A stretch of 64,000 nucleotides of DNA, from assembly GCA_008632985.1 (NCBI GenBank), contig QPGO01000168.1, positions 62,001 to 126,000 on the forward strand, written 5' to 3'. The stretch is from Psammoneis japonica (taxonomy: Eukaryota). Under the pieces are notes generated by a model. That model made no database searches and was not told the origin of the DNA. It saw only the letters and a program-made list of their open reading frames with translations. Made by a program: the position numbers and the translations under genes. Shown here one piece after another: positions 21,501 to 50,017 of the stretch (positions are counted from its first letter, which is position 1; each line of letters begins with the position of its first letter).

Positions 21501-24480
21501 ATTCTTTCTGCTTGGAATGCCGTCACATTTGCTGTGTTCGCTGTCCTTGTTGCTTGCAATGGACTGGCAACATTTGTGCCACAAGATCTGCCTTCTCCGT
21601 GCGCGCTGCCGCATGAGGATGATGGTTCAAAGCTGAGTTTGATTGGCTTGATTAAAATGACAAAGAGGCAATGTGTGATGACTCAAAAAGTTGCCCCGTT
21701 GAGCAAGCAAAAATTCACCTTTGTGCTTTGTGTGCGGCACAAACTTGTCACATCCTCCACCTCATGTGCAGCACAAAATTCACACTGCACACAAAGAGCA
21801 CGGTTGCTCACAGGGATGACCTTCCACATCAGCGCTGTCGTTGTGTGCAGCATCCCACACTGTTTGATGACCTGCCCAGATCGGAGATGCTGGCAGACCA
21901 ACAAGAGACACTGCTGCCACTTTAGCTGGCTCTGGCAGCAGTGGTCCATGCCCACCCTTGCGCAAGTGGGGTGCATGCACTGCACACAGGTTGGTCGGCA
22001 GGTGGGTGATCGGTTTGTTTTGCATTGCTGCTGCTGCCCATGTCACGCCGTGCTTCACCGTGTGGGAAAAAATGCCAACCAATGCAATGATGGCATGCCA
22101 ACGCCAATGTCTTTTGCTGGAAGGAACATCAGCTGCGCGCAACTGGTGTTTGTGCTTGCTCTGCACACGGATGGCATGTTTTGTGCATTGCATGAAGCCA
22201 ATTTGTCAGAATGGCACCAAAATGACAAACACAACCCCCTCTGGGCATGTGGTGCTCTTGCTGCAAAGCCAAGCTAGAGGAAGAAGAGTTGGAGTTGAGG
22301 GCACTGGGGGGGCAGACAGAGTTGATGTTCTTCTTGCCAGAAGAGTTTGCCAAAATGGCTTTGACCTTTTCATCATTTTCCTCACAATGTCTCCAAGCTG
22401 TTGTTGCCAAAGACACTCTGTTGACACCATCATCATGGCTGTCTGAGACTTTGAGCGTGTTTTGACTTGACCAGGAGAGAGTTGGGAGAGACAGCCAAAC
22501 AAGTCAAAAGTTTGTCTTTGGACTGGGTGTGAGTGACCACAGACTTTTTTGCCTTGATGGTGTTTTTTTCAGGCATTTTTATGTTGTTGCCACTGTCTCT
22601 TTCATGGCTTGCTTCACTTGCCACCACAGCATTGGTGGTGGTTTCAGCAGTTTCAAAGATCTTTTGAATGCCTTGTTGTTTGGGATCCATTGTTTTTTGT
22701 TCTCACTCAGGGAAGTGAGATTGCCTTTGGATTTGTTGCTGGAAGCTTCATTGGTCATGGTTGATTTTGGATGCTGTTTCTGTGCAGGACTTGGTGCTGC
22801 TCCAAGCAGGGCTGTTGGCAACTTTTTTGCATTGTTGCACACTGGAAAAGCAGCTCTGGCTGGCAGCTGGTCAGTCTGCAGCAGCAGCAGAATTCCACCT
22901 GACCAAAAAAAGCCAAGTGTCATGGAGAATCATCAAAGCATTCATGATTGAATCTTTCCAACTTTTCAGTTGTGAAAAAAATCTTTAAAAAATTTGCAAA
23001 TGGCGCTCAAAGGTGGAAAGTCATCATTGAGATGCCAGAGCATGGCAACAATGCTTGTGATGACAAACAGAGCCCCAAAGCTGTTTTCAGAATGTGCTTG
23101 GCACATGTCTGTTTCCTGTGGCCGGCAGTGCAAGGTGACAGGGTGGGGATGCTCATCAACATGTTCTTCATGAATCTGGCAGCACAGAGAGCTGATTTTG
23201 CCTTTTTTGTTGTGTCTTTACAAACTGTGGGTGCAAAAGGTGTGCAACTCAGGAGAATGACTTTGACAAAGCTGCAGATCCCCAGAGCTGCCATCAGTGC
23301 TGTTTTTAAAAAAGAAGCTGTCCAACAGCTGAGAGCCAAGTTGGAAAACTCTTTGTCCTGCACATGCAGACATCACAGAGAGTGCAAATTGACTTCAGGT
23401 TCACACTCCCGCTGAGCAACCAAAAAGCAAACTGAGGCTCTTTTTTGGACATGGACAAGCCTCGTTGGGAGAACAATGTGCAAGCTTGCAAACAGAGCTG
23501 TTTGTCAGAAGAGGAGAAGAATTTGACTCAAGACAACATCTGTGCAATGGGTGTTGCTTCTTTGGAACATTGTTGCACTTTGAGCTCCAATGCTTGTTTT
23601 CGACTGGTGCCTCAATTGAGAGCAAAGAAGATGACCATCTTCATTCCAGCGGCAAACAGCCAAACAGGTGTTGTTGCTGTCATGTGTTTGTCACCTCAAC
23701 TTGGTGGCAAATGCCGCCATGCAATGTCCCGCACAACCAACTTTCCTTCCTGCCAAAGAATCAGTGTCTCGCAAACTCAAAATGGGCGAAAGTCAGAACA
23801 GCGTGCACTTTCATCTGCAAGCAGGGGTTGCGCGGTTTTTGGCAACTTTCTTTTGCCACGCACAGCTTGAGCTGTGTGCAAGGCACACTCACCAACTGGC
23901 AAAAATCGGCTCATTTTCCATGTGATCAGCAAATTTGCGCCACTTGGGACAAGTGCAGGATGGTGAAAGAGCTGGTCAACCAAGCAAACCGCTGTCTTGA
24001 AGAGTGGCTGAGCCACCCCTGAGCAGGAAGGTTCTTGCGTCAGATGCTTCGAGTGTGCAGTGCTTGGTTGATTGCGCGCAACAGCTGCGGCCATTTGTGC
24101 AGAAAGGCTGAGCACCACTTCTTGCGTGCTTGCGACACAGATGCGCGGATGTTCTTTGGTGTGTTCAGTCTCTTTGGACTTTTTCCAGGGTGTTTCATGC
24201 ACGTGGGCATCAGGACAATCAATGTTCGCCAAATGAATGCCGAAAATGTGTCTTGTGGGACGAAGACAACATGAATGTGAGCACGCCCAACTCATTTTTC
24301 ATTTTTCATTTTTCATTTTTCATTTTTAGATGTGCCCCTCTCGGCGTCATTCACACGGCCAAATGTTTGCGTAGATGCCCCGCTCAGGGGTGGTGCGAGG
24401 CTGGAGTTCGCATTTTCGCATCGCGTTTTTCAGCCGCTTTTGCTTTTGCAGCAGCATTGGGCATTGGGGTAAAAAAGAAA
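18540..24480. other. TpA-depleted repeat/relic domain 3
   Basis: Near absence of TA; the central part (~20500-23400) also lacks most CG. No protein family confidently recognised. Confidence 0.85.
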
Positions 24481-24960: not shown

Positions 24961-25499
24961 AAATGAAGGTATGTGGTAAACAGTCGATGTCACTGACGAG
25001 TGGGTTCGAATTACGTCAGGTCACTTCGAAAACTCCATTTTTTATTTGCTGTAGAAAAAAAAGAGAGAGCGATAAGAACAATTAGGAACAAATTCTTAGC
25101 GGCAGGACAAGGTGTAAATTCAGATTCGCTGCTACTGTAGGAAGGGCATTATTGCTGGCTTTCTTTACCCTCTGCATTTTATTTCTTAAGAGTAGTTAGC
25201 ACCCGCATCGTACGCGCAGACTGTGAATTGCAGAGCAGTGTCATAATATGATGCCCTTTCCTCATCTCTTTCTAACGAGAAGCTTCTCTATTTCAGTAAG
25301 GAACGGACGTCTATCAGACTCATGGCAATCCCAACGAGTGAGTTTGCAGTGAACGATGTTGTCACAAGTTGTTTCGGAAACGATTTCTGCAACCAGTGGT
25401 TTGAATTGAAAGTCCCTCCAAAATTGGGGATTGGCAATTTGGTGTTGCCACTGATTGAAGTTCATCAAATGAATGCATTTTAACTTTCTTGTTCTGGCT

Positions 25500-26330
25500 T
25501 GTGCAACATGAACAGACAAGCCGGAGATGGGACTCCTTGCTTGTCTATGACATTGAGATGCCATGCACCAGGTGCTGCTGCACTCTGATCTGGCAACGAA
25601 ACAGGGATCGCCGTCCCATTTGAAGCACAGGCAAGATTGAGCCACCGTGCATTGCCATTGCAGGCTTGGTGGCCATCACCTTTTCAATGTCCAATGAACC
25701 ACCGCTGACAGTAATTGAAAAAGACATGCCAGATGCAAGAGTGCTGTGGGACAGGTGTCAATCGTTGGATGGGTCGCCAGATTTCCCGGCTGTGCGTCAA
25801 ACAAGCAGCTGCGGTGTCAGACCTGGCATTTGGAAAGGTGAGAAGTCCTGGTGCTCCTCCACCCCCCAAAAAAACGAGCTGTTGGGCATGATGAGTCCAG
25901 AAGAATGACAAAGGCATGGAACATCTTGTGGTGGACCCTTGGTCACGGCGTTTGTAACAGGATCCCATGCTTCAACATGTCTTGCATGGTGTTGACAAGC
26001 ACAGTCACCAGAACCTTGATCTTTGCCGTTCCAAACTCTGGAACCACCATTGATCATGACTCGACCATCCAGAAGTGTCGTCATGGCAGCGTCAATCCGC
26101 AGTGTTGACAGAGGCGCTTTCGGGGCAAAGGTCGAGTTGGAGGCATCGGCGACATTCCACGACCATGTCGTTCCATCTTCGGCATCCATCACAGCAACTT
26201 GATCTACATTGCACACAATGGAAGGAGCCAGCTTGTGGCCCTTGAATGGCTGAGTTCCAACCTTTTCAATCGGTCCATCTCCTTGCGCTCCCACAAGACA
26301 AATCTCGTCGTCATGTTCGTCCACAATCAT
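25500..26330 (-). pseudogene. Galactose oxidase/glyoxal oxidase-like (AA5 copper radical oxidase) C-terminal relic
   Basis: TTLLDGRVMINGG, VEAWDPVTN, CHSSGLIMPN (family consensus YHSxxxLLPDG) and APGAWHLNVIDKQGVPS (C-terminal Ig-like domain) are spread over several frames. Confidence 0.65.
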
Positions 26331-29300
26331 GACAAGAATCTCTCCTTTTCAAGTGGTGCACTGGGAATGCCAAGCACAAGTTAGAGAATGCAAACGATGT
26401 TCCCTTGGGATTTGCACTGGAAAACTTGACTCTCACAGTGCCCGCCAGATGTGGGACACAAAGTGTTTTTTTCATGAAAAGGGAGGGCATTCACACAGTG
26501 GTTGTCTTGTCAGGTTGCCATTGGCGGTGCAGCATAGAATCTTGCTCAACTGGCAAAAAAAGAGCACACTGCATTGATTTTGTTTGGTCTGGTTCGCCAT
26601 GTCCAACTGAGTGAATGCGATGCATTTGAGATGCTGGAAAAAAGATCCAACGAGAGTCTCCCACAGCACAAAAATTGAAAATGACCACTGCAAAGAAGGA
26701 GAGGCTGCCATGTGCACAGCAAGAGCAGCACCAGAGCCATCACCACTCCTTGGCTTTTCTGGAAATAAATTCAAACATGCAGCAGACCATTTGCATGAAA
26801 TTGTTGTTGCATCAAGAAACAAGGAATCCTTTCTGTGCAATTTCAGGCAAGAAGCAAACAAAACATTGAAGTCACTCAAGGACATGACTTGCCTTGTGTG
26901 CAACTTTCAGGTGCTTCTCAATTCATTGGAGAACATGTGGCACTTGGATTGCAGTCATTGTTTTGCTCAAAATGAAAAACAACTGCCATGATGCTTGAGA
27001 AGACATTCCCAGAAAGATTGCACAACTTGGTCAAGACATGTTTTCACAACCATGTTGCTGTGTCCAAGAGGATTGGCACAAGCACTGCAAAGCACCCAAT
27101 CAATGGAATGACATCTCTTGGCTTGCTGGCACATGCGCGCAGCAGTTCCTGGCAAATGGGGCTCCATCTCTCAAGCTGTTTTTGCTGGAACTGTTGTGTT
27201 GTAGATGCCTCACAGAAAGCATCTCAGAGAAGTTTGTGAAGCTTCCACCTGCCAGCAAGAGCAGGGTGTGAGATGTGGCTGTGGACAATGGCCCATCTTT
27301 TGACAACTTTGAAAATCAGGCACTGCCCCAAGCCCGCCATCCAATGCTGGGTGGTGCCAAAGGATCAACAACTCAACTCATCTTTGCAAAGACACCCTCC
27401 TTTGTCTGTCTTGGATGCCATCCAGCCCTGTCCAAGTCCATGTGACAAAATGTGCCCTTTTCATCAACCACAACTTGAGAGTCTTTCATCAAATTGAGGT
27501 GCTCATGGACCATGCCATCTGGCCTTTTCAATTCCTCTTTGATTCACTTCAAAATGATTTTGGGTTCGCAATCATGGGACAAATGCACCAAAGCTGCATT
27601 TGGCATGCTCAAAGTTGCAACAATGAGCTGCCACCAACAAGCTTGGTTCTGGGATGCATCTCATCTTTTGTGTGATCACAACTGGGTTGCCCCAAAAAAT
27701 TGATGACATTGGCTTGCAAACAGCTTCTCTTGGGGGTTGACAAACACAGTCAATCAGCACAGAGAGCTGCTCTTCTTGGGTTGGGTTCACCTTGTGGGGC
27801 CGCTCCATTCCCAACTTTTCAATGCCACAATTTGTGTTCAACACCTCTTCAAGGCAACATGCCATTTCCATGGTTGAATGGAATTTTTCCATTGCTGCCA
27901 GATGTCTGTTGATTGATTGGTGGACAAATGACAGCAGCATTTGTGCTTGCCACAGTTGCTTCTGCCAGTGCTTCAATCCATGTCCAACCATGGACACAAC
28001 CCACTCATGACTGTTTGTGTGCTTTTGATTTTGGCTTGAAGATTTGACTCATGTGCTTGCAGTTTGACATTTTTCTTTAGAACATCATTTGTCTCATTGG
28101 CGTTCTCCATCTGTTTTGCAGCTTGACTGCCATGATGACATAACTCATCAAAACCATTTTTGTTGCTGAGAATCAGTGTTCATTCATGTCCATGCAAATG
28201 AAGGTGCACAGGGAGAGACAAAGAGCCAAACTCTTGATGAGCAGAATGAAGCAACAACTCAACAGACCACCTTCATCTTTGGCTTTGTGCTTTGCCATGC
28301 ACCACTGTCCTTGGTCTAATTGGTGAGATGAACAAAGGATGAGAAGATGAGACAAAACAACAAATTTGTTGTTGGCCATTGTTGGTCATCACCAATCTGA
28401 CCTGCCATGCTCACACACACCTCTTGCAAGGACCAGGCAGCCATTGTCTGTGCATCATCTGTTGCCTCTCATCTCACGGCATCCTGACTTGTGTGATGGC
28501 AGCACTCGTGCAGAAACAGGCTGCATCAACCATGCCAACATGCCTCATCTTGGAAGTGTGAAATGTCATTGTGCAAAGCACGCTCCTCCTCCGATGCAGT
28601 CTGACTTGAGAGGACCTGCTGAAAGAGCAGGCAGCCACATGCTCAAAAAGAAAGCGGTGCTGAAAACCTGCCAAGGTGGGTGCTTTTTTTGCTGAAAAGG
28701 CAGATGGGAAAGGGGGTTGCCTGTCACCCAGCACCACCCACAAAAACCACTTTTGGGACAATTTTCTGCTGCTGGGCTTGGCTTTTTTTGCCAAACCACA
28801 GTTTCCTTTTTGCTGTGGGTCCTGCCGCTGAAGTGCAGTGGGCACATGATGCATGCATGAAATGGCATCCCTGTGGTGACTCTGTGGCTGCTGTTTTCTC
28901 AACATCACCTTCAAGAGCCACAGCAGCCAACAGCACATTGCATCTCTTGAACTCATGTGCAGGAGAATTGGCATGAAGTGAGAGTGTGACAGGCTTGTTG
29001 TTGACTTGTGTGGTTGAAAAGCAACAGGCAAACATTTTGACATTTCAGCTGTTTTCTCTTGAGCAGTGGACTTCAAAGCACAGAAAAGCACACGTGCGTG
29101 TGATGTTGGCTGCACTCTGTTAAAGTGTGCAAGCACCGTGGTGAGTTTGTTGTCATTGAAGAAGCACACTGCATTCATGGCAGTGATTGTCTCATTGCAT
29201 TTTGACAAGTCATGGAAAATTTGGAACTCCAAATGTTTGTGGTTGCAGCTGTGCAAACAGGTGTGAGTTCTCAATCTTCCAGAGGTTGTCAAACACAGCC

Positions 29301-29797
29301 TTCATTGGTTTTTGCACATGACATTGAAATGAGTGAATGAAGCATTTGCGCTGACCATGAAGAAGGGCAATGTGCATCAGCACGCATGCACAAACACTGG
29401 GGGGCTGCTGCCCCAGCAAAAAAAAATTGATGCTCAGCAAAAAAAAACAGGCACAGCTCTGTTGGGCACAACAAAGGGAGTCATTGCAACATGTGCCAGC
29501 ATTGCCAGAGGGCTCATGCACACACACACCACACCACCGCTGCTCTTGTGCACTGCATTGTTTTGTTTTGTTTTGTTTTGTTTTGCAGACTCTCTGCCAC
29601 ACCCAGCAAAACACTGCTGGCAGCCACCCAGTTTGAAGTCTCTCTGCCAAATGCAGCATGACAGCCATGGGAGGTGCCTCCTTGCACCTTTTAGTCTCAG
29701 TTGGTGGCAACCAAGTTGAGCAAGTTGAAGAAAAAGAAGCCTGGGCAAGAAGCCTTCTTTTCAGCCAGCGCCGCCAGAAGAAAAGAAGGAGTCAGTC

Positions 29798-30073
29798 TGA
29801 CAGGATTTGAACAGGATTCAGGTGCGCGCGAAATGTCGCGTGCTGTTTAGTTTGTAGCGCACAGTTTTGTGTGCTTTGGTTCCGCGCGTTCGCGCGCGAT
29901 GCAGTTTGCTTTCGAGCCACAAGGCTCACAAGAATGACAACAGCAGCCCGATCACACTGACTTGCACGTCTTTCGGCTCCTGTGACGGTCTCTGAGCGGA
30001 GACTCATCTGCCATTTAGACAGCAGCAAGGAGTTGTTGTTTGAATTCTTGCCATTTGCCTTCAATTTCTGTCA
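29798..30073 (+). repeat. 5' LTR
   Basis: Ungapped alignment to 36013-36288 with 23 mismatches in 276 bp (manual count). Confidence 0.97.
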
Positions 30074-31030
30074 GATTGACAGTCTTGCTCATTGTCAACC
30101 CATTGAGCAATCGCCATCATCGTCGTTGATTTGCCGACGACGCCACTTCAATTCTGCGTGGACCTCCGTGTGTGTTCTACGCACATCGGCAAGTCCACGC
30201 GCATTCAATGCCAGGCATCGGCAGGAAGTTAACGTCACCGTCAAGTCTCCTCACCGCTGGACATCTGGATTGATTGTGCCACCTTTTGTCGCTGAAGACA
30301 TGCATTCAACGGCCACATCCAATTCCACCCTTGATCCTCATCCCTTGACACACCCATTCAACGGTTAACAGTCAAGAACCCTGCATGTTCAAGGATCTTC
30401 GTCGCTGCAGACATGTGTGCACACAAATCTTCACGGCCAAGAACTTGAACCCACTCTTCGGACTGCGGCTTTGCCACCACTCTACAAGCACGCCAAGTCT
30501 GTTGTGCCTCATCTACCCCAGACCACTGGTGCTCTGCAGTTCTGCCAGGTCCACGAGGACGACTGTGAGAGCAAGCAGCCGTGATCACAGCCTGCGTTGG
30601 GGCGAGGGTGTTTTTCCCACGTTTGTTCGTTCGTCCGTCCACAGCGCCTGACGCCTGCGTCAACTGGCCAGCCTGATCGGGAAATCCAACCAACATAAAA
30701 TGAGAGCGGTTCGGGGGTCTTGTCCACCTCTAGTCAGCTCACCTGCAGGGGTTTACAACCCGCCACTCCGCTCGCAAGCAACCCAAAGTGCCACCAGCTG
30801 CGGGTTCGGACGTGCCGGCACAACTCCACGGACCAGATGGGAAGTTTGGCACTTGACAACGAATGGGATGACACAACCCGGCGACTTCTGATTTTAAGAC
30901 ATTCAAGATTTCAAGTCAAGTCCATTTCAAGTCAAGTCCATTTCCAAGTCAAGTCCATTGTCACCCAAGTTTCAAGTCCACCTTCGCGTCCCAACAAGAA
31001 TCGCCTGTCCTGACACCGCTTTTGTCTGCC

Positions 31031-34000
31031 ATGGTTCTCACTCGTCAGCAACAAGCTCCAGTTGGTCTGTGCATTGTCAAAGCACACGAAGGTCTTGATG
31101 TTGCCAATGACTCCTCATTGTTCACGCATGAGGAGTTCCTTGCCTGCTGCCTCAGCCCCGACCACATGTCGTCTGTGTCTGTCGGAAGCTCACCCCTCGC
31201 ACCTCCGCATGTCACCAACCCGACCAAGGCACGCGACCCGGTGCGAGACTTCAAGCAAGGTGTCAAGCGTGACCCCACTGCTTTCACGGCTCTCAAATCT
31301 GACAAGCAGTGGCACACTTGGCACACCTCACTTGTGGCACAAGCCCGTGCCCAAGACGTCGAGTGTGCTCTAGACTCGTCGTACAAACCGACCAGCCCCG
31401 AAGACAAACTGCTCTTTGCTGAACAGCAAAAGCACGTGTTCGCCATCTTCAAACGCATCCTTCTCACCGACAAGGGCAAGGCTCTCATTCGCGAAAATGT
31501 GGGGTCTTCTGATGCCCAGACCATCTGCCGCGCCTTGTCCGAGCATGCGCTCGCCTCCACCTGCACATCTGTCGAGTCCTCCACCCTGCTCACGTGCCTC
31601 ACCACCGCACGTCTTGGTGATGGCACTTGGAAAGGTCCGACCCACGGGTTCATGCTTCATTGGCAGGATCGGTTGCGCAAGTGCAAGGCACTCATCCCGG
31701 CCAGCGACCACTTCTCTGAAGGACAGAAGCGCGTCATGCTCAAGAATGCCGCACATCCTGTCGAGGAACTCCGCGCCGTCAAGAACCAAGCTGATCAGCA
31801 TCGCACGCAGAGTGGCAAGAGCCTCACACACGATCAACATTGTGGCTTGCTCCTCTCCGCGGCGGCTCAATGCGACAGTGCGTTTCAACCCAAGACGACA
31901 CCTCGAGCTCCCCGACGCGCCATGTGCGCACACGACGTCTGCTCCGAGGAACCATCCGATGATGTGTTCCATGACATCGACAGCGACATTGACGTCCTTC
32001 AGGCTAACGCTGCCTGCACCCGCGGTCCCAGCCTCGCCGGTGACCAATGGAAACGTCTCCCTCCCGACCACCAACGGATTTGGAATTCGTTGCCCCATTC
32101 CTCCAAGGCAATCATCCTTGAGCATTCTCGTCCGCCTCCCCGCAACCCGCGAGCCAGCAACTGCCATGAGTCCGTTGCGGTCAACCTTCACGACCAACGA
32201 CTTGGGAGTGATGGTGATGTCAACTTGTCCAACACGACTCCTGCTGACTCTGGTGACCCCACTCCAAATGTGGATGCCACTTCAGACAATCCCATTCTGG
32301 CGCACCTCACCAAGTGCACGCCACTGCCACCCGGTGATCTGCAATGCCTGTTGTCTCCTTGCCAAGCCCCCAACGCCAGTCGACCGGGCCCATCCGCTGC
32401 TCCCTCTGCCTCGCCTGCTGCTCCAGATGACACAGAACTCAACGGCCGCACTTGCCGCCGCGTCAACAACCACAATGTCATTTGCTCTGCCTCCGCTCAT
32501 CGCTCCACACACACTGGTGCTCTAGTCGATCGTGGAGCCAACGGCGGCATTGCTGGTGACGACGTTCGTGTCATTGCACGCACCTCTCGCCAAGTCGATG
32601 TTCAGGGCATTGACGACCATCAATTGGTGGACATCCCCATTGTCACCGCTGGTGCCGTCATTGAGACACAGCGTGGTCCCGTCCTTGCCATCCTCCATCA
32701 CTCCTGATGGCTGTGTCACCCCAATTGACATCAAGGGTGGCCTGCCTCATGTTGCCATGCGGCCCTGCACTGACGACAAATGGGACGCCCTGCCACATGT
32801 CATCCTTGCTGGTGATGACACATGGGATCCTTCCGTCCTCGATCACTCTGTCACTGACGACGACCAGTGGTGCAGACGCGATCTCTGACCCACAGGATGA
32901 TCCCACTGCCAACCCATTTGATGAACACGGCAACTGCCGTCACCGTGTTGTTGTCAACAAGGCCATCATGTCCGCCTCCTTGTCTGCCGACACCCCTGCT
33001 GTCGACTCTGGTTGCACCAGTGCCCAACTGTTTGTTGGCACGGAGTCTGCTGTCACTGACGTCTGCGGCACCAAAACGGACAAAGAGTTTGTCAACACAC
33101 TCAAGGATCAGATCCGTGAGCGTGGTGCTCCATCCAAACTCATTGGCGACCATGCTCAAGTTGAGATCAGCAACAAGGTGCTCGGGATTCTACGAGCCTT
33201 GTTTGTCTCCAGCTGGCAAAGCGAGCCTCACCAGCAACACCAAACCTTTGCAGAACGTCGACACCAGACCGTGAAGCGCGTGGCGAACACCGTCATGGAC
33301 CGTTTCGGTTCGCCTGCCCACACATGGCTGCTGGCGCTCATGTGCGTGTGCTTCATGCTCAACCACACAGCGTCCCCACGTCTCCATTGGCGCACGCCCC
33401 TCGAGACTCTCACTGGCTCCACCCCGGACATCAGCCCATTGCTTCGCTTTCACTGGTGGGAACCCGTGTGCTTCCACCTCGATGACTCCGATTGGCCATC
33501 CGAATCCCATGAGTTGCGTGGGCGTTTTGTTGGCATTGCTGAGCACGTCGGCCACCAGATGACCTTCAAGATTCTCTCTGACGAGACTCAGAAGATCCTC
33601 TGCCGGTCCAACACACGATCCGCTGCCACTGATCCTGCCGCTTGAAACCTGCGTCTTGATCCTCCTGATGGGGAGCCACCTGAACCCATCATCAAATCTT
33701 GCCATGATGACAACCCCGTCGATTCACCTGGTGGGGAGATCAGGACACCCAAGATGCCAGTTTTTGATCCACAAGACATCATCGGACGCACCTTCCTCAT
33801 GCAGCCACAAGAGGACGGACAACGCCACAGAGCTCGCATCGTCAAGGCCGTTGAAGATCATGAATGGAAAGTGAGCGGCAACCCCGAGCTCACCAAGTTC
33901 ATCTGCTCTGTCAACAATGACGAATGCAAGGAAGTCCTGGCCTGCAATGACATCATGAATCGCATTGAGCAAGAAGACAAAGACACTGCTGTTTGGAAAT

Positions 34001-35960
34001 TTCGACGCATTGTGTCACACGAAGGACCTCTGAAGCCTCATGACCCAACCTGGAAAGGCTCAAGCTACAACATCATGCTTGAATGGGAAAGTGGGGAGAT
34101 CACGTCCGAGCCTCTTGCCATCATCGCCAAGGACGACCCTGTCACCTGCGCCATCTGTGCACGAGAGAATGGACTTCTCGACACTGATGGCTGGAAGTGG
34201 TTCCGCACCATCGCGAGGTGCCAGAAGAAGCTATTTCGCATGGCCAACCAAGCCAAGCTTCGCTCCTTCCGCACTGCACCTCGCTGCAAGTGCGGATGTG
34301 AAGTCCCCCGGAACTGCAAACATGCCATGTCACCAGATGAACGCAACGGCAACCGCAAATGGGGAGATGCAACTAATCTCGAGATGGACCAACTCAATGA
34401 GTGCAAAGTCTTTCATGACTGTGGGCACTCCGAGTCTTCCACTCCTCCTGTGGGACACAAGAAGATCCGAGTGCACCCAGTGCACGACGTGAAACACGAC
34501 GGCCGCCACAAGGCACGACTCGCAGCCGATGGGCACCTCACGGACGTGCCCATCGACAGTGTCTGCTCCGAAGCAGTCTCCCTCCGTGGCCTTTGGTTGA
34601 TGATTTTCCTGGCCGAACTCAACGAGTTGGAGACATGGGCCGCTGACATTGGCAATGCCTGCCTTGAAGCCACCGCCAAGGAGAAGCTGCACATTGCAGC
34701 TGGACCCAAATTTGGCAAACTCAAAGGCCACATTCTTGTCATCCACAAGGCCCTGCATGGACTGCGCAGCTCCGGCCTCCGCTGGCACGAGCGCTTCGCC
34801 GACTGCCTGCAAGCTGAAGGTTTCTTCCCCTGCCGTGCCGAACCCGACATTTGGATGCACAGGAACGGCGACCACTACGAACACATTGCCGTTTGTGTGG
34901 ATGACCTCGCCATTGCCATGAAGGACCCTCAATCTTTCGTCGACACTCTCACAGAAAAGCACAAGTTCAAGCTCAAGGGTGCGGGACCGATTGAGTTCCA
35001 TCTGGGCTGTGACTTTTCCCGGGACCCTGACGGCACCTTGTGCCTGTCTCCGCGCAAGTGCATCGAACGCATGGTCGACAGCTGCACACGACTGTTTGGG
35101 GAGAAACCTGCCACCAATGCCCTGTCACCTCTGGAGAAGGATGACCACCCCGAACTGGACACTTCTGAACTGCTGGGGCCCAATGGCATTCAACAGTTCC
35201 AGTCTCTTGTTGGTTCTCTCCAATGGGCAGTGTCCCTTGGTCGAATTGACATTGCCACGGCCGTCATGTCACTCTCTAGCTTCCGAGCTGCGCCCCGTCA
35301 AGGCCACTTGGATCGTGCCAAACGCGTCTGTGGGCACCTCTCCAAGATGCGACACGGCGCTCTCCGCGTTTGCACGGAAGAGCCCGACTGTTCGGATCTC
35401 CCTGCTCTGGCCTGTGAATGGATGCATTCCGTGTGCGGCAAAACAGAAGAGATGATCCCGAAGGACGCTCCACCGCCCCTTGGCAAGTTCGTCACTGCCA
35501 CCCACTGCGTCGATGCAAACTTGCACCATTGCATGCTCACCGGATGCTCTGTCATGGGAATGCTCCACTTCCTCAACAAATTCCCGGCTGATTGGTTCTC
35601 TAAGAAGCAAGCCACCGTTGAGACTGTGACCTGCGGGTCTGAATTTGTTGCCGCAAGGACTTGTGTCAGCAGATTGTCAACCTGCGCATCACCCTGCGCT
35701 GCCTCGGCATCCCGATCCGTGACACCAGTCACATGTTCGGTGACAACAAGTTGGTTGTAGACAGTGCCACCATCCCGCACTCCAAGTTACACAAGTGACA
35801 CACCGCACTGTCGTTCCACCGTGTGCATGAGGCAATTGCCTCTGGTTGCCTTGAGCTCCACTTCATCGAAGGCTCCCGCAACCCTGCTGACATTCTCAGC
35901 AAGCATTGGGGTCACTCCCAAGTCTGGGACCTTCCCTGCCCCCTCATGTTCTGGAACTTC
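31031..35960 (+). pseudogene. copia gag-pol (disrupted)
   Basis: Start MVLTRQQ; protease ALVDRGANGG; integrase GAPSKLIGDHAQVEIS and SEPHQQHQTFAERR; RT DIGNACLEA, KALHGLRSSG, AVCVDD; RNase H CVDANL, GSEFVAART, MFGDN, NPADILSK. Contains frameshifts, deletions and TGA stops. Confidence 0.95.
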
Positions 35961-36012
35961 ATTCCATCCGAAGTCGAATCTGTTTCTGTGACTCCTCAAA
36001 CAAACTGGGGAG

Positions 36013-36288
36013 TGACAGGATTTGAACAGGATTTGGGTGCGCATGAAATGTCGCGCGCTGTTCAGTTTGCCGCGCACAGTTTTGTGTGCTTTAGTTCCGC
36101 GCGTTCTCGCACGATGCAGTTTGCTTTCGAGCCACAAGGCTCACAAGAACAACAACAGCAGCCCGATCACACCGACTTGCACGTCTTTCGGCTCCTGCAA
36201 CGGTCTCTGAGTGGAGACTCATCTGCTGTTTAGACAGCAGTGAGGAGTCATTGTTTGAATTCTTGCCATTTGCCTTCAATTTCTGTCA
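36013..36288 (+). repeat. 3' LTR
   Basis: Matches the 5' LTR and is followed by TSD CAGTC. Confidence 0.97.
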
Positions 36289-36642
36289 CAGTCTCTCAGC
36301 AGTGTTTTCCTTCTTCCTTTTTGTTGGCATGGTGGATCTTTTGCACTGGCAGATTTGACCCTGTCAACATGGTTTGAGAGCAATGTTGCTGGAATGCATT
36401 TCATCTTTTGATTGCAGGGAGTCACCTCAGATCTGTTGAAAGTCAAAGCTGTCCCATCGCGCTTGTGTGTGTGGACACAGTGCATCTGATTCCCACCGAT
36501 GACTCTGGCAAAATGGACATGTTTGTGCACTGCAACACATGTCCATTGAAGACATCACAATTGCCCTTTCCTTGTGTGACAACATTCAGCAAGACATGTT
36601 GCATGTTGAGATTGCGGTCACATCACAACTCAACGGACAACC

Positions 36643-37860
36643 AACTTTCAACAAAAAGTTGTTGAAATTTAGATCTTTCAACAAAAAAGTTGTTGAAAGT
36701 GCAGATCTTTCAACAAAAATCTGTTGAAAGTTAGATCTTTCAACAAAAATCTGTTGAAAGTTGTGCTTTCAACAAAAACCACATCAAAGACATGTGTCAG
36801 GGTCACTGACAACATTGTTTTTAGGGTTGCACTGCAGTTGGGCAACACACAAGTCAAAGATTGTGACAAGAACAGCGCGGGCAATGCACACCTTGCCAAA
36901 GCCTAAAAGAGAGGCTTGAAGTTGGCTTGGCAGTTCAGCGCTGGTTCAGTGGTTTTAGCAGAAGCAGCTCAACAATTTGTGGTGGCAGTTTCAAAATTTG
37001 TGGCAGTGGCTTCAGTGTGCAAAGCACAGTGATTTCAGAATTTGCGGCTTTGCAATTGTCAATTTCTTGAAATCTGCCAGCAGTGGAGCACCTTCCATGG
37101 TTCCAAGTGAGCCACCTTCCAATGCACTTCGCACCAAGCAAAGCTCCCACCTGGCAGCAATCCACCTCCCATCTCACCCAGTGCATCATCAGGTGCTGTC
37201 TGCAGCTCTAAGTGAGAATCATCCCAGTGCCAAAACACCGGCTGCTCCATCCTCATGCTGCATCTTGTGTGGTTTCATCCTCAGACAAAGCACCAAGTCA
37301 CAAGCAACTCCATCAGTCACACCAAGCTGCGGACATGGCTCAACTTGTCACGTCCCATTGAAGTCAACAAAGGACTTAGAAGTGAGGATGTTGGTGACAG
37401 CACCACTGAGAATCAAGTGGCGCTGACCTGCATGCTTCGTGCGCGCCATTTAAAAAAATTGAAATTGCTTTGAGGTTTCAAACAAAACAGAAATCCACAA
37501 TTCTCAATGACACACAATGGGGCCATTGCTCCCAACAATGAAAAAAGAAACGGGGAAAATGGCGCAAGCATCGTTGAGATGCCGCGCCGCAAAGTGGGCA
37601 CAGTCTGCTCACTTCATTGTGCTCGCTGCAGTTTGCTGAGGAGCAAAGTGGGAATTTCTGCAGCACATGCTGCATCCAACAATGAGTGTTGGTCATGCAC
37701 ACTTGTCTTGGATGACGTCACTTGTTCAATCAGATTTTTGTGCCGACGAGTTTTCTGTTGAAGTTGTTGAAAGTCGCGTTTTTCAACAAAAAGTTGTTGT
37801 TGAAAGTTGCGTCTTTCAACAAAAAGTCGTTGAAAGTCATTTGTTGAAAGTTGTTTGGCA
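36643..37860. repeat. Clusters of short palindromic units (ctttcaacaaaaa...tgttgaaag) at 36643-36780 and 37755-37860, likely subterminal repeats of a non-autonomous DNA transposon
   Basis: Repeated TTTCAAC / GTTGAAA inverted pairs at both ends of a ~1.2-kb segment. Confidence 0.55.
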
Positions 37861-38575
37861 GAAAATGCTGCAATGACTTTCTTGTTGTCAAAAGCCACAA
37901 AGCTGAACAAATGAGCTCATTCGTTTCCAGAGTGCAGCTGTGCACTGCTCACACATGTGGTGTGATGGGCAGCGGGCCAAATTTTGCACAGTCCAAGTCG
38001 CCAGCAGTGTCACAATGCGGACATTTGCAAAATTTTATAAAGCTGCACACAAGAATGAATCATTTCAATTTGAGTCGTAGTTTCAACAACGACTCCCAGT
38101 GGTCAAGCAGCGCGGTTTCTTGGTTTTGAGCCTTGCGCATGAGGTCGCGTTGTACCGGCAGGCAGATGCGCGAGCATGTGCGCAATCCCAACAAAACAGT
38201 CATGGGTCTCGAAGTCATTCTCGGGAGTCACAAAATGACTGTTGTTTCTTTGTATTAAATGTTGAAAAGCAATACATCATATTTTAAAGCTGGATAAAAT
38301 GACTCTTTGTTATAGCCTTTACGAGTCACCAATTAGGAATCACGATCAATTGTGTAGAAGATAGTACTGTGGAGTCCCCCTTTTTTCATTTACGCCCCTC
38401 ATCATCCATGACACTCGCAAAACCAAAAACAATCGTGTGATTGAGGTGTGAGACAACAAAACAAGAAGCCCCTGAGAATATCAGAAAAAGCATTGTCGTT
38501 ATTGTTGTTGTGTGCTTTTGATTGTATTGCATTGAATTGTGATTCAGCAAACCAATAATAGAATAAAGCAAGAAG

Positions 38576-42892: not shown

Positions 42893-43569
42893 GGTTGCTT
42901 TTGTGGTGCGTGTGATTATGTAAACAGTGTTCTAGTTCAAAGCAAATGCTCTTTCTGTTTGAATCAAAAACAAGAGCCTTGAATTGCTTTGCGCCTTTGC
43001 TTCAAAATTGTGTTGTTGTCAAGAGGAAGGTTCTATTTTCTATTGACGATAGGATGGGACACGCTCGTGGCTTCTCTTTCCCGAGTTTGAATCGATTTGT
43101 ATCGGTGAGTATGAAGTAGAAGCACGCACTCAGTAGTAATAGAGGCAGAGATCCTGACGGATATCAATCGATTGCATGAGTGAGTAGAAGGGACTGAATT
43201 TTGTGGATGCGTTCCGGACACGGAACATGTACCAGATCCGACGTAGAATTTGGAAGAAGGTCACGACTCAGCTTCTGAATTGATTCGTGGATCGTCCGTT
43301 GGAAGTATTTGATTAAAATGAACTTATTAATGTTTGAATAAGTGTGAGACAAAATATTTCTATCGAGTATGAATAATTATCAATGAAACCGAAAGTGATC
43401 CCGCCAAATCTGATGGCGAATGACAGATTTTTCGTTTTTATTTACGGTCACATACTTCGCAGTTTTCGACGGGACTTGGCAAGTCGTGTTGTCTTCTCTT
43501 TGGCAAATGGGGCTGCTCACACCTCCTACCTCTTCTTCCTGCTCCTCGTCTTCATGGGTTTGTTGCACG

Positions 43570-43875
43570 CTGCAACCTGGACAAGAGATGTCAGCAGCTC
43601 TGACAAATTGAGCAAAGTGAGCAGCAGCAACTCAGAAATTCATGACAAATGATGTTGGAGGACATTGGTGTGACGACAATCAGCAGCACTTCCAGCCACA
43701 AAGTTGTGAGGTTGTTCCATGCCACCCTCTGTTTCAGCGATGCTGGTCATGGTGAAATGGGTGCTGTCACAGCAGCAACCAATGATTCACTCACATTTGC
43801 TCGCACCCACCCCTCGCCCTTTCGAGCAAATCTGCAGCGCTCAGCGTCAGAGTCTGCGAGATGAACAAGTTGCGT
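43570..43875 (+). repeat. Dispersed repeat, diverged copy at ~51262-51572
   Basis: Shared gacaagagatgtcagcagctctgacaaattg...gccaccctctgtttc...gcagcaaccaatgattc. Confidence 0.8.
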
Positions 43876-43899
43876 GTGTGCTTCCATTTGAGAAATTCA

Positions 43900-45600
43900 G
43901 CAGCTGGTGCCACATGCACCCCAGCACTTCACCCCATTTTTGTGGGTGACCACATGTCAGCCAGCCAGATGCACTGACCCTCTGCTGTTTGAGTTGGCGC
44001 CATTGGCTCTTTGCAGCACCTGGTGTTAAAAAAGAGCATCGTGCGCCATCTTGCACCAGCAGAGTGCAGCACACAAGTGTGATGGCAAGATGCTCCTTTC
44101 CAACAACAAGACATCAATGTGAGTGGACTTTTGTTGAAGATGTTCTGCATGTTGTTTGATGGTGTCTTCGGCTTGTTCCCTTCTGCGCGCAGAAACTTGC
44201 GCACTTTCTGTGCACCATCATGCAATGGACAACAACCTGGGATTTCCAAAACTTCCAAACTGCACTCAGAAAGCAAGCTGGGCATCAGTTGAAAGCCACA
44301 CTAGCTGTGCACCAGCAACTGGGCCATGTTGTCCCTTGACATGCTGCAGCTCATGACGGCACTCCTCTCTGCATGTTGAGCTCCAGCGCATCACACATTT
44401 TTCATTGAGTGCCTTGAAAGTGAGGCATTTGTTGTCAGCATGTGTGAGTGTGCATTGGCAAAATTCTTTCTGTGTCTCCACAATGACAAGCAATTCTCTC
44501 TCAGCGGTTGTTGTGTGTGGTTTGGTTGTGCACTGTTGAGCTTTCTGCTGTCGAGCATGGTCGGTTTTTTGTTTTGTCACATCGCTGCTTCAAGTTGACA
44601 TTTAGAGGCACCCCAGCATGCATCTCAAACAGATTGTTGAAGCATGGATGTGCCCCAATGAGATGTCTTCAGACAGCACTCATTTGAAATTCTCAAATGC
44701 TTTGTCTTTGGTGGACATCCACTTCCAGCCAACAGTCTTGCAATGGGTGCCACAACTTCAGAACGTCCAAGCCATGTGTCACAGAAGTGGTTTGCCACAC
44801 CCACAATGCAATGTGCTCAATGGCTTCAACTTTGGCAGGTGTCAGCTGTGTGTCTTCTCAGCCAACAAAACAGCCTCCCAAGTGCTTTGCTTGGGTCTGA
44901 CAGTGGAGCATGCACAACTTCTGGATCTTCTTCTGATTTGTGATCAGCAACCAAGAATTGTCTGTTTTGTGGCCTCACTGCATGCAACCTTGGCACTTTG
45001 GTCTGGGACACCTTCTGCATCCTCAACCTGCTCAACTTGCTCACAAAATGCAACAAATTTTGCCACAGCGGGTCAAAAAGCCCTGTGCAGCATCATGTGC
45101 TTCTGCCGCTCTTTTGGCACACTGTGCTCAAACAAGTTGAGCAGCTTGTTGTTGGGTGACAACTCTGGCACATCTCTGCCATCTGCCACAAGTGGAAACC
45201 AAGAGATGTGGCCATTGATTTCAACTGTGCAGCCCCGCCCTCACACAGTGCCCAAGGGTCTTGATGCCAGCTGGCTTGCACATGAAAGATCTCAGATGAC
45301 ACTTCTGCAGAAGCACCGCCCCACACTCCTTGAGGAAGGTGATGTTGGTTTTGGCATTTTGACTGTTGGCAGCATTCTTGAATGTTGCCAGGGGCATTGC
45401 CCTTGAAAAGCCTGTGTGCAAGTGGAAACTTTGCCAGCCCTGCAGCGACACTTTGTCCCTCCTGGAGCACTTGCTCAGCATTTTTCTCTGAAAAATCTGC
45501 CACTCTTTGCATGTTCCCTCAGAAAAGAGCAGCAAACTCAGCTTGTGCGCGCAACTGTCTGGATCCACAAGATCATCACGCAGCTTGTGCATCCAGCACT
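43900..45600 (-). mobile_element. Ty3/gypsy LTR retrotransposon relic (gag and RNase H fragments)
   Basis: HTTTAERELLVIVETQKEF...HADNKCL...VMRW...ELQHVKG matches gypsy RNase H (YTTTERELL...YTDHKNL...RW...YIKG). Gag-like KLRDDLVDPDS...LFSEGTCKEW. Confidence 0.7.
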
Positions 45601-46899
45601 TGCCCTTCTGAAGCTTCTTTTTTTTTTTCAGAGCACGCGAACGGAGTCAGTGTGGTTGAGCCTGCTTCTTCATGGTTGGCTCCACAGTTGTTGACACTGC
45701 CAGCATGTCACAGCATTGATTCTCACAGATTTGCAACATTGCACAACACACAAAGCAATGTTGCTGTGCCCCACATGCCCAACAGGCAACAGGCAATGAA
45801 AGTGCAGATCTGTCGCCACAGCAGTTGTTGTGAAAATCATGAGCTGGTGTTTGCCATGGAAAAAGTGGCTTGTTTGGATTTTGCATCACATCAAAACTGC
45901 TGCTGTTGGACAATGCAAATCAGGCCACCATGCATTTTCCACAAGTGATGTCATTGTGACAGGCTGTGCTGCTGCTGGGGGGCAGACAACACACCATGCA
46001 TGGATGCTGCAGGTGGTTCTCTGAAATTGCCTGAGTTGAAGAGCCACACCATTTCTTGGATCATGCTTCCCAGGTGCACCTGAGCAGCACTGTGCTGCTG
46101 CACTCCAGAGGCCAATGCACAGTTTTGCTGTGCTGGCCAGCAGATGTGCGCTGCAGTTGATTTTTGTCTCTGGGCAGGTTTGTTGGTTTTTGTGGCACAG
46201 CTGCAAACTTTGTTGTGCCAAAAATGACCTTGCAAAAAGTCAATCATGCAACCTTTTGTCATTGTCATCTTTGAATGCTGCTGGCAATGTGAAAATTAAA
46301 CAGCATTGCTGTGTCAAAGTTGAGTTGGTTGAAGCACATTTTATTTTTGCAGCCTGGAAGAGGGGGCACAGGAAACCATCACAAAAAAAACATCACAAGC
46401 TCTCAGTCCACCACATCATCTTCTGCAGACCCAGTGCACAAATGACATTTTGAAAAAAGCAAATCGCAAATGACAACTCATCACACTTGCAACTGCAGCA
46501 ATGTTGATGCATCTCAAAGACAAAACATTGAGTCCCACCAGTCTGCAGCAAGAATTTCTGTGAGCACAGCAGACAGAGACAGACAGTTTTGATGACACAA
46601 AAAATCATCAGTCCATTCACAAAAAAATGTTGAGATGGTCAACAAAATGACACAGTGTGTCTTGAGTGAGGTGGTCTGCTTTCTCAAAAGAGATTGACTG
46701 GGGTGCATTTTTTGAGCCAAAACATCTTCCATTCTTCACATCCAAGATCATGCTGCACTGCACGCACAATTTTGTGCAGAGTGAAACAAATTTTGTCAAT
46801 TCAGACAAAGGACCACACTGGCGCCACAACAATCAACATGAAGCAATGCTTTGCACAGACCAAACAAAACAACTGTGCACATCATTGACACCAAATTGA

Positions 46900-48340: not shown

Positions 48341-48825
48341 TGCTGCAGCAGACTTGAACATGCTGATGTTTGTTTTCCTCCATGCGTCTTGATTGATGAT
48401 GCGGCGGCAGCTGCTTCTCATCTCGCCTCTTCGAGCTAGTTATGCTCTTAATTAGAGTACACTAGATAGATAAGGAGTAACTAATTAATCCAACTGTTTT
48501 CGTACCTCTGCACTGTGTGGCCAGAAGATTCCGACGTCTTGCATTCCCCTCCGACGTGAATAAATAGAATAACGAATGCTGCATGCATGAAATGGCATCA
48601 GCAATTGTCGTTACCGGTATGGCGTTGCTTCAAAGGCGCCGAGTTGTTCTGTATGTGTGGTCCTCCGCAATGCTGTAGTGGCATTTCCCCGAGTCCAACG
48701 CTTTGTAAAGACATTTTAGTTGTGCGTTGTATCAGCCTAGAGTTTCAGTGCTTAGCATCTCGTAAAAGGCACTACCAATCTAAGCAAGGAAAAGACAAAC
48801 GTCAATTACCGTTCTGGTTTCTCCT

Positions 48826-49686: not shown

Positions 49687-50017
49687 GTTCTTGCTTTGAG
49701 GATGTTGTGCTGTTGGACTTTGCCAGTTAGTTCGTCGTACCTGTGGTGTGATGCCAGCATTGTCTCTCAATGAAAGGACTCCAACCAACTTCCAACTTGT
49801 CGAGTGCCGCAGGAAGTTGCATGAAAAATCAAAATTTTCATTTTTCCCTGTTTTTCTTGCGTTTTCAAACATTTTGACCAAGAAGCAGAGTCAGTCGTTC
49901 ATCGGCAGGTCGTCAAACAGTGTGGGATCAACATGCTGACGTGAAAGGCCATCCTTCAAGTAATTGCACCTCATGTGCGGTGTAAATTTTATGCCACACA
50001 TGAGGGGGCTCTTCATC

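Follow-up and report, generated by a model that had tools for sequence, protein, structure and literature searches.

The full-length Ty1/copia LTR retrotransposon at positions 29798-36288 of the window (the whole 64-kb stretch of Psammoneis japonica DNA that we analysed), together with the gene-poor DNA of the same window, was very probably struck after integration by a targeted mutator acting at TpA. This reading rests on the observed spectrum and direction of the changes, their timing after integration, the use of both strands and their confinement to particular domains.

The element is a dead insertion with direct LTRs ending in TG..CA, a 5-bp target duplication and an RVT_2 reverse transcriptase (Table 1). 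The RVT_2 match in the RT ORF is strong (E 1.2e-18, 68.1 bits against a Pfam cut-off of 31.6), and this ORF has 1075 homologues at E <= 0.001. The integrase-side ORF gave no Pfam rve match, and its BLASTP alignment with the N-terminal region of one relative (P0001) spans 223 aa at 63% identity. The C-terminal piece of pol lies in a different frame, and pol is thus frameshifted near 35760-35800. Diatom Ty1/copia (CoDi) elements have been described (Maumus et al., 2009; PMC2806351), in a paper whose available text does not use the terms TpA, hypermut or dinucleotide. Our element shares with CoDi the element class (LTRs, 5-bp duplication, RVT_2) and the Bacillariophyta clusters of its relatives; for relative P0117, the closest clusters in the Atlas are listed under Bacillariophyta, a phylum recorded for only 2 members per cluster. 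In an expression look-up, no RNA data were listed as carrying the element.

Table 1. Features of the copia insertion and TA-depleted domains of the 64-kb window (o/e, observed over expected).
Feature	Position	Strand	Details
Target-site duplication CAGTC, left copy	29793..29797	+	same 5 bases adjoin both LTRs
5' LTR, 276 nt, ends TGACAG...CTGTCA	29798..30073	+	direct repeat, 92% identity to 3' LTR
ORF on gag-protease side, 611 aa between stops, without Pfam match, 1 Tyr	30872..32707	+	
Integrase-side ORF, 326 aa, 0 Tyr	32665..33645	+	stops at TGA in frame with RT ORF
RT/RNaseH ORF, 704 aa (stop to stop), 2 Tyr	33646..35760	+	RVT_2 at residues 268-477
C-terminal pol piece, other frame (HTALSFHRV...NPADILSKHWGH)	35799..36233	+	fits alignment A1 C-terminal majority residues
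3' LTR, purine tract GGGGAG just before	36013..36288	+	
Target-site duplication CAGTC, right copy	36289..36293	+	matches left copy
TA-depleted domain	1..1800	.	o/e 0.04 (segmentation)
TA-depleted domain	3301..5100	.	o/e 0.03, CpG 0.18 (segmentation)
TA-depleted domain	5501..7800	.	o/e 0.06, CpG 0.19 (segmentation)
TA-depleted domain	19101..24300	.	o/e 0.05, CpG 0.37 (segmentation)
TA-depleted domain holding copia	25301..38000	.	50 TA, o/e 0.07, CpG o/e 0.59 (segmentation)
TA-depleted domain	43501..48400	.	o/e 0.04, CpG 0.25 (segmentation)
TA-depleted domain with two N runs	50001..58000	.	o/e 0.04, CpG 0.32 (segmentation)
TA-depleted domain	60201..63900	.	o/e 0.04, CpG 0.20 (segmentation)

The first-pass annotation had remarked that TA is nearly absent from the element. 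Indeed, base composition predicts 317 TA and the element has 27 (o/e 0.085), with CG at 396 against 495 expected (0.80), TG at o/e 1.60 and CA at o/e 1.44. The sliding-window check of TpA and CpG that it had proposed, carried out within the 64-kb window, resolved into two states with sharp borders: a two-state segmentation of TA gave 8 depleted segments that sum to 40,400 bases, about 63% of the window, at TA o/e 0.03-0.07, and remaining segments at 0.36-0.74; the genic domains across the borders lie at 0.45-0.74. Expressed as counts, the depleted domains hold 122 TA in 37,660 bases (o/e 0.05), and genic DNA holds 831 in 24,007 bases (o/e 0.48). Genes escape the depletion, promoters and 3' ends included. 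Within the depleted domains CA/TG stands at o/e 1.76, and AA (1.24) and AT (0.83) are not depleted. A second, slower process has acted alongside, namely CpG>TpG/CpA decay, with CpG o/e 0.18-0.37 in the old domains; some of the surplus of TG/CA is due to it, but none of the TA loss.

The annotation had further described the depletion as affecting all repeat domains. The depletion itself extends to all eight domains, but beyond copia and some short duplications internal to the window their repeat nature is unsupported. Tandem repeats within the IQ gene are untouched, and the target of a comparable process in Bigelowiella natans is single-copy (Mettrop et al., bioRxiv 10.64898/2026.01.13.699255), so "repeat-targeted" is unsupported. 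Because DNA free of TA is nearly devoid of TAA and TAG, it carries long false ORFs in all six frames. Accordingly, 97 of the 98 ORFs of at least 110 aa in the depleted domains lack a Pfam match, and false ORFs of this kind will inflate gene counts in similar genomes. One Kringle match below the cut-off, in a depleted-domain ORF, was taken as a side effect of Cys enrichment. As for the window more generally, its ORFs are intron-less and reach 2060 aa; the 64-kb window contains no tRNA genes or Rfam families, and no deaminase was found among its genes. An O-fucosyltransferase ORF had 6 metagenome matches, and a homologue search with a 583-aa host ORF returned no match.

The direction of change was read from relatives of the RT ORF, taking as reference the majority residue among 60 of them. 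The scarcity of tyrosine noticed at first reading holds for the stop-to-stop frames of all three ORFs (2, 1 and 0 residues in 704, 611 and 326 aa). At the 28 columns where the consensus is Tyr, the copy has Cys in 16, His in 6, Phe in 3, Tyr in 2 and Trp in 1. The relatives have YVDD, NAYL and ALYGL where the copy reads CVDD (TGT at 34894), NACL (TGC at 34660) and ALHGL (CAT at 34756), and likewise TYGSEF, GYKKI and YKYGFEVP where it reads TCGSEF, GHKKI and CKCGCEVP. These proposed Tyr losses all agree with the majority residues. VHDVKHD had been listed with them and does not belong there, as the relatives read VFDVKHD. Two non-Tyr cases also fit, ARLAADG (GCA) by TA>CA and KGAGP (GGT GCG) by A>G where T and A fall in adjacent codons (T|A>T|G). 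Catalytic motifs were thus destroyed as had been proposed, YVDD>CVDD among them, with the frames left open and no stops added. Across 364 conserved columns the copy differs at 64, of which 23 are reverted by a single TG/CA>TA step and 11 by a single TG/CA>CG step; the corresponding figures for 12 intact relatives, used as control, were 4 and 15 of 260 differences. TA makes up 0.30% of RT-coding dinucleotides in the copy and 5.0 +/- 1.3% in 43 relatives.

Active family members that natively carry Cys or His at these positions had been named by the annotation as evidence against its reading. The consensus is Tyr, and 78 of 80 related metagenome loci have a normal TA o/e of 0.43-1.02. The same signature is nevertheless present elsewhere in the metagenomes, at loci L046 (TA o/e 0.02) and L050 (0.33), and in three relatives with Cys or His at many of 25 Tyr columns (P0120 at 19, P0043 at 11, P0115 at 6). 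Contigs from four sequencing runs (X1-X4), all of one sample and study, possibly the window's own source, give a within-sample comparison and a partial read check. Among the 40 best-supported differences, CA or TG in the window corresponds to TA in 15 and to CG in 13. In X1, variant places comprise 392 transitions and 54 transversions; 11,533 contigs of this run cover the copia family and 2397 are at least 99% alike. Of the words sampled from the element, only 43% occur in X1, and at some listed places the window's letter is carried by no contig.

The two LTRs date the changes. They differ at 23 positions, 21 of them transitions and 20 lying within TA/TG/CA/CG pairs. At six sites a TG in one copy faces a CA in its partner, where CpG decay predicts 0.32 such sites (Poisson P about 1e-6), and the pair is also discordant at 2-3 TA sites. 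Tandem repeats of genic DNA, used as control, had no TG/CA-discordant site and a transition to transversion ratio of 1:1. The six discordant sites mean that TA was lost after integration, separately in each LTR and on both strands. The claim that both strands are hit is likewise borne out by the depleted domains, where TG (4301) and CA (4386) are similarly frequent, and TG and CA do not form strand tracts (runs test z = -0.74). Together, the relatives, the LTR discordance, the other copies and the controls agree with the proposal of an A:T>G:C process at TpA in putatively silent or foreign DNA. In the young copia about 90% of TpA sites and about 18% of CpG sites have changed per LTR; CG is present in one or both LTRs at 20 aligned sites, and at 6 of these the other LTR has TG or CA. 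On these small counts from one 276-nt LTR pair, TpA loss is roughly ten times faster than CpG decay and, by a rough estimate, two orders of magnitude above background substitution.

The bases flanking TA also appear to matter. RTAY accounts for 1 of the 122 surviving TA in depleted domains and for 226 of the 831 genic TA, whereas YTAR accounts for 64 and 159, respectively, and the gain per 1000 is 13.3 for YTGY and 4.6 for YCAY. Tyr codons that follow a pyrimidine became TG in 13 cases and CA in 1, compared with 7 and 7 after a purine (Fisher P 0.033); in RT alone the TG:CA counts are 12:0 and 4:6 (P 0.003). Judged from these sequences, TAY would be mutated about three times more readily than TAR in the window. 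We read the excess of Cys over His at Tyr columns (16 vs 6) as a neighbour effect and not as strand bias, given the equal raw frequencies of TG (9.0%) and CA (9.2%) in RT-coding DNA. The neighbour rule was not replicated in L046 and L050, and in L046 the Tyr codons preceded by a pyrimidine became CA in 10 cases and TG in 3. Moreover, 6 of the 9 listed read differences of CA against TA lie in YTAY, contrary to the TAY rule; these may be subfamily differences, which are unpolarised.

In the scenario that we favour, the copia element would have inserted into gene-poor DNA that was already, putatively, silent, and a TpA-specific mutation process would then have hit the element and every other gene-poor domain of the window. 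An A:T pair on either strand would become G:C, turning TA into TG or CA, site by site and without long single-strand tracts. Tyr codons would become Cys or His codons and the catalytic motifs of RT would be destroyed, and reading frames would remain open because TAA and TAG vanish. The process may serve to defend the genome from mobile or foreign DNA flagged by silent chromatin, and silencing or foreignness is better supported as its trigger than repeats. Our leading guess for the chemistry, a tentative one, is that adenine in DNA is deaminated to hypoxanthine by a deaminase of the ADAT2/TadA type. The natural tRNA target of ADAT2/TadA is an A with a preceding U. ADAT2 is also a candidate put forward by Mettrop et al., who likewise propose a role in defence.

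A chemistry that starts from T seems unlikely to us, even though A-directed and T-directed chemistry are indistinguishable from sequence alone. In silent chromatin, a TET/JBP-type dioxygenase would oxidise the T of TpA, yielding 5-hydroxymethyl- or 5-formyl-uracil, and the oxidised base would mispair with G, giving T>C and, on the opposite strand, A>G. All our results are symmetric in this respect, A>G at TAY being T>C at RTA on the opposite strand; CpG and TpA are both self-complementary YpR steps, and in each the pyrimidine would be altered, with TG/CA as the product. Dinoflagellate 5-hydroxymethyluracil is said to favour TpA and TpC, which counts in favour of a T-first route, but the widely different speeds of CpG and TpA change in the young copia do not point to one shared enzyme. 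Error-prone repair synthesis limited to heterochromatin, for instance misinsertion opposite T at WA by a Pol eta-like polymerase, would likewise yield A:T>G:C at TA on both strands through single, unclustered events, and Pol eta does prefer WA>WG. We nonetheless regard it as improbable: the specificity is extreme, with AA and AT undepleted, near-total removal of TA is hard for a patchy process, and the A>G and T>C mutations of B. natans are all on TpA (Mettrop et al.).

An artefact of sequencing, base calling or polishing, in which base modification of silent DNA would cause TA to be called as TG or CA, is very improbable. The platform of the assembly and of X1-X4 is unrecorded, the element is incompletely represented in X1 and the N runs of the window indicate a scaffolded assembly; yet the family recurs in read-derived contigs of all four runs, again with transition variation at TA/CG/TG/CA sites, unrelated metagenome records (L046, L050, P0120, P0043, P0115) show the same signature, a per-strand miscall should give TA/CG consensus calls as frequently as TG/CA, and the B. 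natans process was measured with Illumina reads (Mettrop et al.). Even harder to credit is hyperediting of the retrotransposon transcript ahead of reverse transcription, an ADAR-like A>I change at UA. The preprint's Discussion names A>G with a 5' U as the ADAR neighbour preference, but both LTRs derive from one template and are nonetheless discordant at TG/CA and TA sites, the two strands are equally hit, and gene-poor DNA without retroelement proteins is in the same state. Least credible of all, to the point of being negligible, is that the family itself avoids TA through native composition or selection. Genic TA is admittedly lowish too, but relatives retain Tyr and TA, TA is retained by further copies of that sample at places where the window copy reads CA or TG, the catalytic YVDD has been lost, and no transposition-competent copies with Cys or His at Tyr columns were seen.

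If a targeted TpA mutator is accepted, the window probably shows where such a process ends up in a second, unrelated lineage, here on ordinary retrotransposons and not on giant-virus insertions. It offers testable properties (TAY over TAR, site-by-site action on both strands, and a speed far above that of CpG decay) and enables a comparative enzyme search for deaminase or dioxygenase genes common to both hosts and absent from TA-normal relatives. A bolder proposal, to which we give slightly less than an even chance, is that a chromatin-guided TpA mutator, far from being confined to a single chlorarachniophyte, is a widespread algal defence that erases TA to saturation in all silent domains of the window's genome, prefers TAY there, and outpaces background about 100-fold and 5mC decay about 10-fold; the L046, L050, P0120, P0043 and P0115 copies, mutated in part or in full and drawn from several unrelated metagenomes, would then be its natural footprints.

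To our knowledge, heritable killing of mobile DNA by mutation was for a long time known in two forms only, RIP and CpG decay. A third route, in the opposite direction (AT>GC), comes from the B. natans preprint, so that the process, which the first-pass annotation had thought undescribed, has already been measured (Mettrop et al., bioRxiv 10.64898/2026.01.13.699255). It is the only report that our literature search for the TpA-loss signature returned. As given there, integrated viruses undergo de novo TpA>TpG/CpA hypermutation: two integrated-virus regions gained 231 mutations in mutation-accumulation lines, of which 230 were A>G or T>C, all on TpA, and reverse transcriptase and DDE domains are over-represented among coding sequences poor in TpA. 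By analogy, the process in the window would be of the same kind. Both systems feature near-exclusive A>G/T>C change at TpA to TpG/CpA on either strand, confined to particular, putatively silent or foreign regions in otherwise ordinary DNA. They differ in that the B. natans process was measured de novo, with two viral insertions still at 3.3% and 9.2% TpA, whereas ours is deduced from the sequence of about 63% of 64 kb, is saturated at 0.3% TpA, includes a dated LTR retrotransposon and is coupled to CpG decay. Also, B. natans genes have 8 introns on average and its genome has 12.9% repeats, whereas the ORFs of the window lack introns and the copia family is abundant. The preprint's main text reports no extended sequence context; the window adds the TAY-over-TAR preference, gene-poor saturation, the dated retrotransposon and the absence of strand clustering.

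RIP of ascomycetes, in the available descriptions, converts C:G to T:A, mostly CpA>TpA, and enriches TpA. Our process shares with it a heritable, transition-only hypermutation of mobile DNA at one dinucleotide that kills coding capacity, but TpA is destroyed and CpA/TpG are products (TA o/e 0.05, CA/TG 1.76), and dependence on repeats is unsupported; with TA depleted instead of enriched, the window does not belong to RIP. In the diatom P. tricornutum, the available mutation-accumulation text (PMC6604790) describes a GC>AT bias of the usual kind and names CG/CC/TG as mutable contexts. Deamination of 5mC shares the TpG/CpA end products and the domains, but cannot remove TA and is about ten times slower per site. 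Lastly, animal ADAR and APOBEC3 are likewise deaminase-type editors with a neighbour preference directed against mobile nucleic acids, but they act on RNA or on pre-integration single-stranded cDNA, on one strand, whereas the copia changes arose after integration and on both strands.

The frequency of TA along the window is sharply bimodal, with observed/expected (o/e) values, in 500-base steps, of either 0.0–0.15 or 0.3–0.7. Two-state segmentation gave eight TA-depleted segments summing to 40,400 of the 64,000 bases (TA o/e 0.03–0.07), and the remaining segments (0.36–0.74) are home to the recognisable host genes. With hand-set domains, depleted DNA holds 122 TA in 37,660 bases (o/e 0.05), with CG at 0.40 and TG and CA both at 1.76; genic DNA holds 831 TA in 24,007 bases (o/e 0.48, a TA share of 3.46%), with CG, TG and CA at 1.01, 1.25 and 1.18. 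In the copia element we counted 27 TA against 317 expected, while CpG was mostly retained (o/e 0.80). The near-absence of TA noted in the first-pass annotation was thus borne out, as was the paucity of Tyr in the three large ORFs (2, 1 and 0 residues). In genic domains, e.g. 7801–19100, TA o/e is just 0.45–0.6, lower than the value of about 0.7 that intact copia relatives of other origin typically show; this may be a faint genome-wide imprint of the TpA process, or codon and composition bias alone may explain it. Two small islands of normal TA lie within depleted DNA, and a search of both for tRNA and Rfam matches found none.

The features of the window are collected in the table. Given the in-frame TGA and the frameshift in pol, this copy of the element is dead even leaving aside its lost Tyr residues.

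Features of the copia element and of other parts of the window
Feature	Position	Description
Ty1/copia insertion	29798-36288	exact bounds
LTR pair	29798-30073; 36013-36288	276 nt each; 92% identical; ends TGACAG...CTGTCA
Target-site duplication	both flanks of element	CAGTC, 5 bp
Purine tract	just before 3' LTR	GGGGAG
RT ORF		704 aa; Pfam RVT_2, E 1.2e-18
ORF upstream of RT ORF		63% identity to N-terminal part of longer relatives
In-frame TGA interrupting pol	33643-33645	between integrase-side and RT ORFs
pol frameshift	~35760-35800	before final 144 codons; C-terminus carries on in ORF 35799-36233
Tandem arrays just 3' of copia	36645-36778; 37761-37838	30-33-nt unit, an inverted repeat (CTTTCAACAAAAAG/CTGTTGAAAG)
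131-nt tandem array	51679-52059	2.9 copies, 96%
IQ gene	8284-14466	unbroken 2060-aa ORF; dozens of IQ calmodulin-binding motifs (Pfam IQ, E 2.4e-57)
138-bp tandem array in IQ gene	13055-13732	4.9 copies; TA normal
Normal-TA island	5101-5500	TA o/e 0.74; CpG o/e 1.42
Normal-TA island	24301-25300	TA o/e 0.60; sole ORF 178 aa, without family

The direction of change was read from relatives of the RT ORF, which matches more than 1000 database proteins (top identity about 60%). Aligned with 60 of these, the window copy departs at 67 of the 373 columns that are at least 80% conserved; Y>C is the most frequent change (13), ahead of Y>H, R>C, T>A (three of each) and R>W (two). Where relatives have mostly Tyr (28 columns), it carries Cys 16 times, His 6, Phe 3, Tyr 2 and Trp once; the codons for Cys and His, 22 in total, are without exception TGY or CAY. 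In a second alignment (364 conserved columns, 64 differences), a single TG/CA>TA step reverts 23 differences and TG/CA>CG reverts 11, compared with 4 and 15 of the 260 differences in a control of 12 intact relatives, from which two metagenome loci (L004 and L005) with stops within the stretch were excluded. TA o/e is 0.43–1.02 in 78 of 80 related metagenome loci; for the 44 with near full-length matches, RT-coding dinucleotides were compared, giving TA at 0.30% in the window versus 5.0 ± 1.3% in 43 relatives, with TG and CA each about 1.7 points higher in the window. The Atlas clusters nearest to one relative, the database protein P0117, are recorded as Bacillariophyta, but only two members of each have a recorded phylum, so that a diatom assignment is a lead only.

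Because LTRs are identical at integration, the 23 differences between the two copies arose afterwards. Twenty-one are transitions, and 20 lie inside aligned TA/TG/CA/CG pairs (3 outside). Six sites are discordant: one LTR reads TG where its partner reads CA. CpG is unchanged in both LTRs at 14 sites and altered in one at 6; the resulting loss of about 18% per LTR predicts 0.32 discordant sites from CpG (Poisson P about 1e-6 for 6). With TA kept in both LTRs at one site and in one LTR at two, the data fit a TA loss of about 85–90% per LTR; as a rough estimate, TA decay ran about two orders of magnitude above background and about 10 times faster than CpG decay. The pattern recurs in older duplications within depleted DNA; in one pair, 11 sites are TG/CA, and transitions outnumber transversions 55 to 2. 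The control, tandem repeats within the IQ gene, has no TG/CA sites and a transition:transversion ratio of 1:1, and since TA there is also normal, the mutator spares in-gene repeats.

Both strands are affected equally in depleted DNA (4301 TG, 4386 CA), and the order of TG and CA is random (runs test z = -0.74), so long single-strand tracts are absent. Surviving TA is in RTAY context in 1 of 122 cases in depleted DNA versus 226 of 831 in genic DNA, and in YTAR context in 64 versus 159; measured against relatives, copia TA survival is about 1% for RTAY, 7% for mixed classes and 25% for YTAR. These values fit a simple model in which, on each strand, a pyrimidine directly after an A makes that A about three times more prone to be hit. 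YTAY would then become mainly YTGY; indeed, per 1000, YTGY gains 13.3 and YCAY 4.6 in depleted DNA outside the copia, and 9.2 and 4.1 within it. Likewise, Tyr codons preceded by a pyrimidine became TG 13 times and CA once, and those preceded by a purine 7 times each (P 0.033; RT alone P 0.003). Against the rule, 6 of the listed read differences do not fit, and in L046, a related, hypermutated metagenome locus, Tyr codons after a pyrimidine became CA 10 times and TG 3 times. The neighbour rule is suggestive, limited to the window's genome and not proven. At Tyr columns of L046:284-2311, His outnumbers Cys (12 versus 5), mostly after a pyrimidine, the opposite of the window rule; a different host, a different enzyme or chance could account for this.

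A base-calling artefact was weighed using other copies. The family is present in four sequencing runs of one sample, with 11,533 contigs on the element in the first run, and variant places comprise 392 transitions and 54 transversions. Among the 40 best-supported differences (423 further), contigs read TA at 15 places that are CA or TG in the window, and CG at 13. As a check, these runs go only part of the way: their platform is unrecorded, they are possibly the window's own source, the first run has only 43% of the element's words, and rare variants are lost from contigs. Among unrelated metagenome records, TA o/e is 0.02 in L046, which has a single Tyr over 676 residues and carries the motifs CVDD and ALHGL; L050 is intermediate (0.33, YVDD retained). 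In a survey of 120 database relatives at 27 Tyr columns, the proteins P0120, P0043 and P0115 have Cys or His at 19, 11 and 6 of 25, all others at no more than 3 of 25 (median 0). These five sequences offer independent support against an artefact. Across them, Tyr>Cys/His change and TA loss are graded, the share of altered Tyr columns running from roughly a quarter to almost every one.

RNA-level editing is ruled out by the LTR discordance, and RIP by the direction of change. The first-pass reading of A:T>G:C change at TpA on both strands is upheld by relatives, LTR discordance, other copies and controls. The data show a TpA-specific process that acted after integration, confined to domains and alongside slower CpG decay. 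We infer that silent chromatin rather than repetition would guide it, and that it would work as a defence. ADAT2/TadA-type enzymes target A34 of tRNA, preceded by invariant U33, and the chemistry we tentatively favour, at somewhat under even odds, is that such an enzyme would deaminate adenine in DNA at TpA. Thymine oxidation at TpA predicts exactly the same sequence pattern, and we consider it rather improbable.

The finding is genuine, and a striking one. It also carries a hazard for gene prediction: loss of TAA and TAG in depleted domains opens up long spurious ORFs, which lie on both strands and overlap one another in different frames. Of ORFs reaching 110 aa or more, depleted domains, e.g. 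19101–24300 and 60201–63900, contain 98, of which 97 lack a Pfam family, and the six-frame stops in copia are 16 TAA, 24 TAG and 285 TGA.

The first-pass annotation knew of no described system with this signature; a full-text literature search found it in one preprint only, on Bigelowiella natans (bioRxiv 10.64898/2026.01.13.699255). According to its accessible text, 231 of 302 nuclear mutations in mutation-accumulation lines fell within two integrated-virus regions, 230 of these 231 were A>G or T>C, every one at TpA, and the rate there was about 6e-7 per site per generation, about 1000-fold over the remaining genome. RT and DDE domains were over-represented among TpA-poor coding sequences, the authors suggested an ADAT2 homologue for the enzyme, and the main text, as accessible, mentions neither other species nor flanking context (10.64898/2026.01.13.699255). 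The accessible part of a study of mutation-accumulation lines of the diatom P. tricornutum reports no such effect (PMC6604790). The window is unlikely to share B. natans as host, going by what these sources state: it has unbroken ORFs of 2060, 583 and 519 aa, whereas B. natans genes average 8 introns (PMC13746701); its genic TA is 3.46%, compared with a nuclear TpA of 6.0% of dinucleotides (10.64898/2026.01.13.699255); and its copia family is very abundant, compared with 12.9% repeats (PMC13746701). The process in the window adds a new case to a kind with a single earlier description, from 2026, and is no categorically new system.
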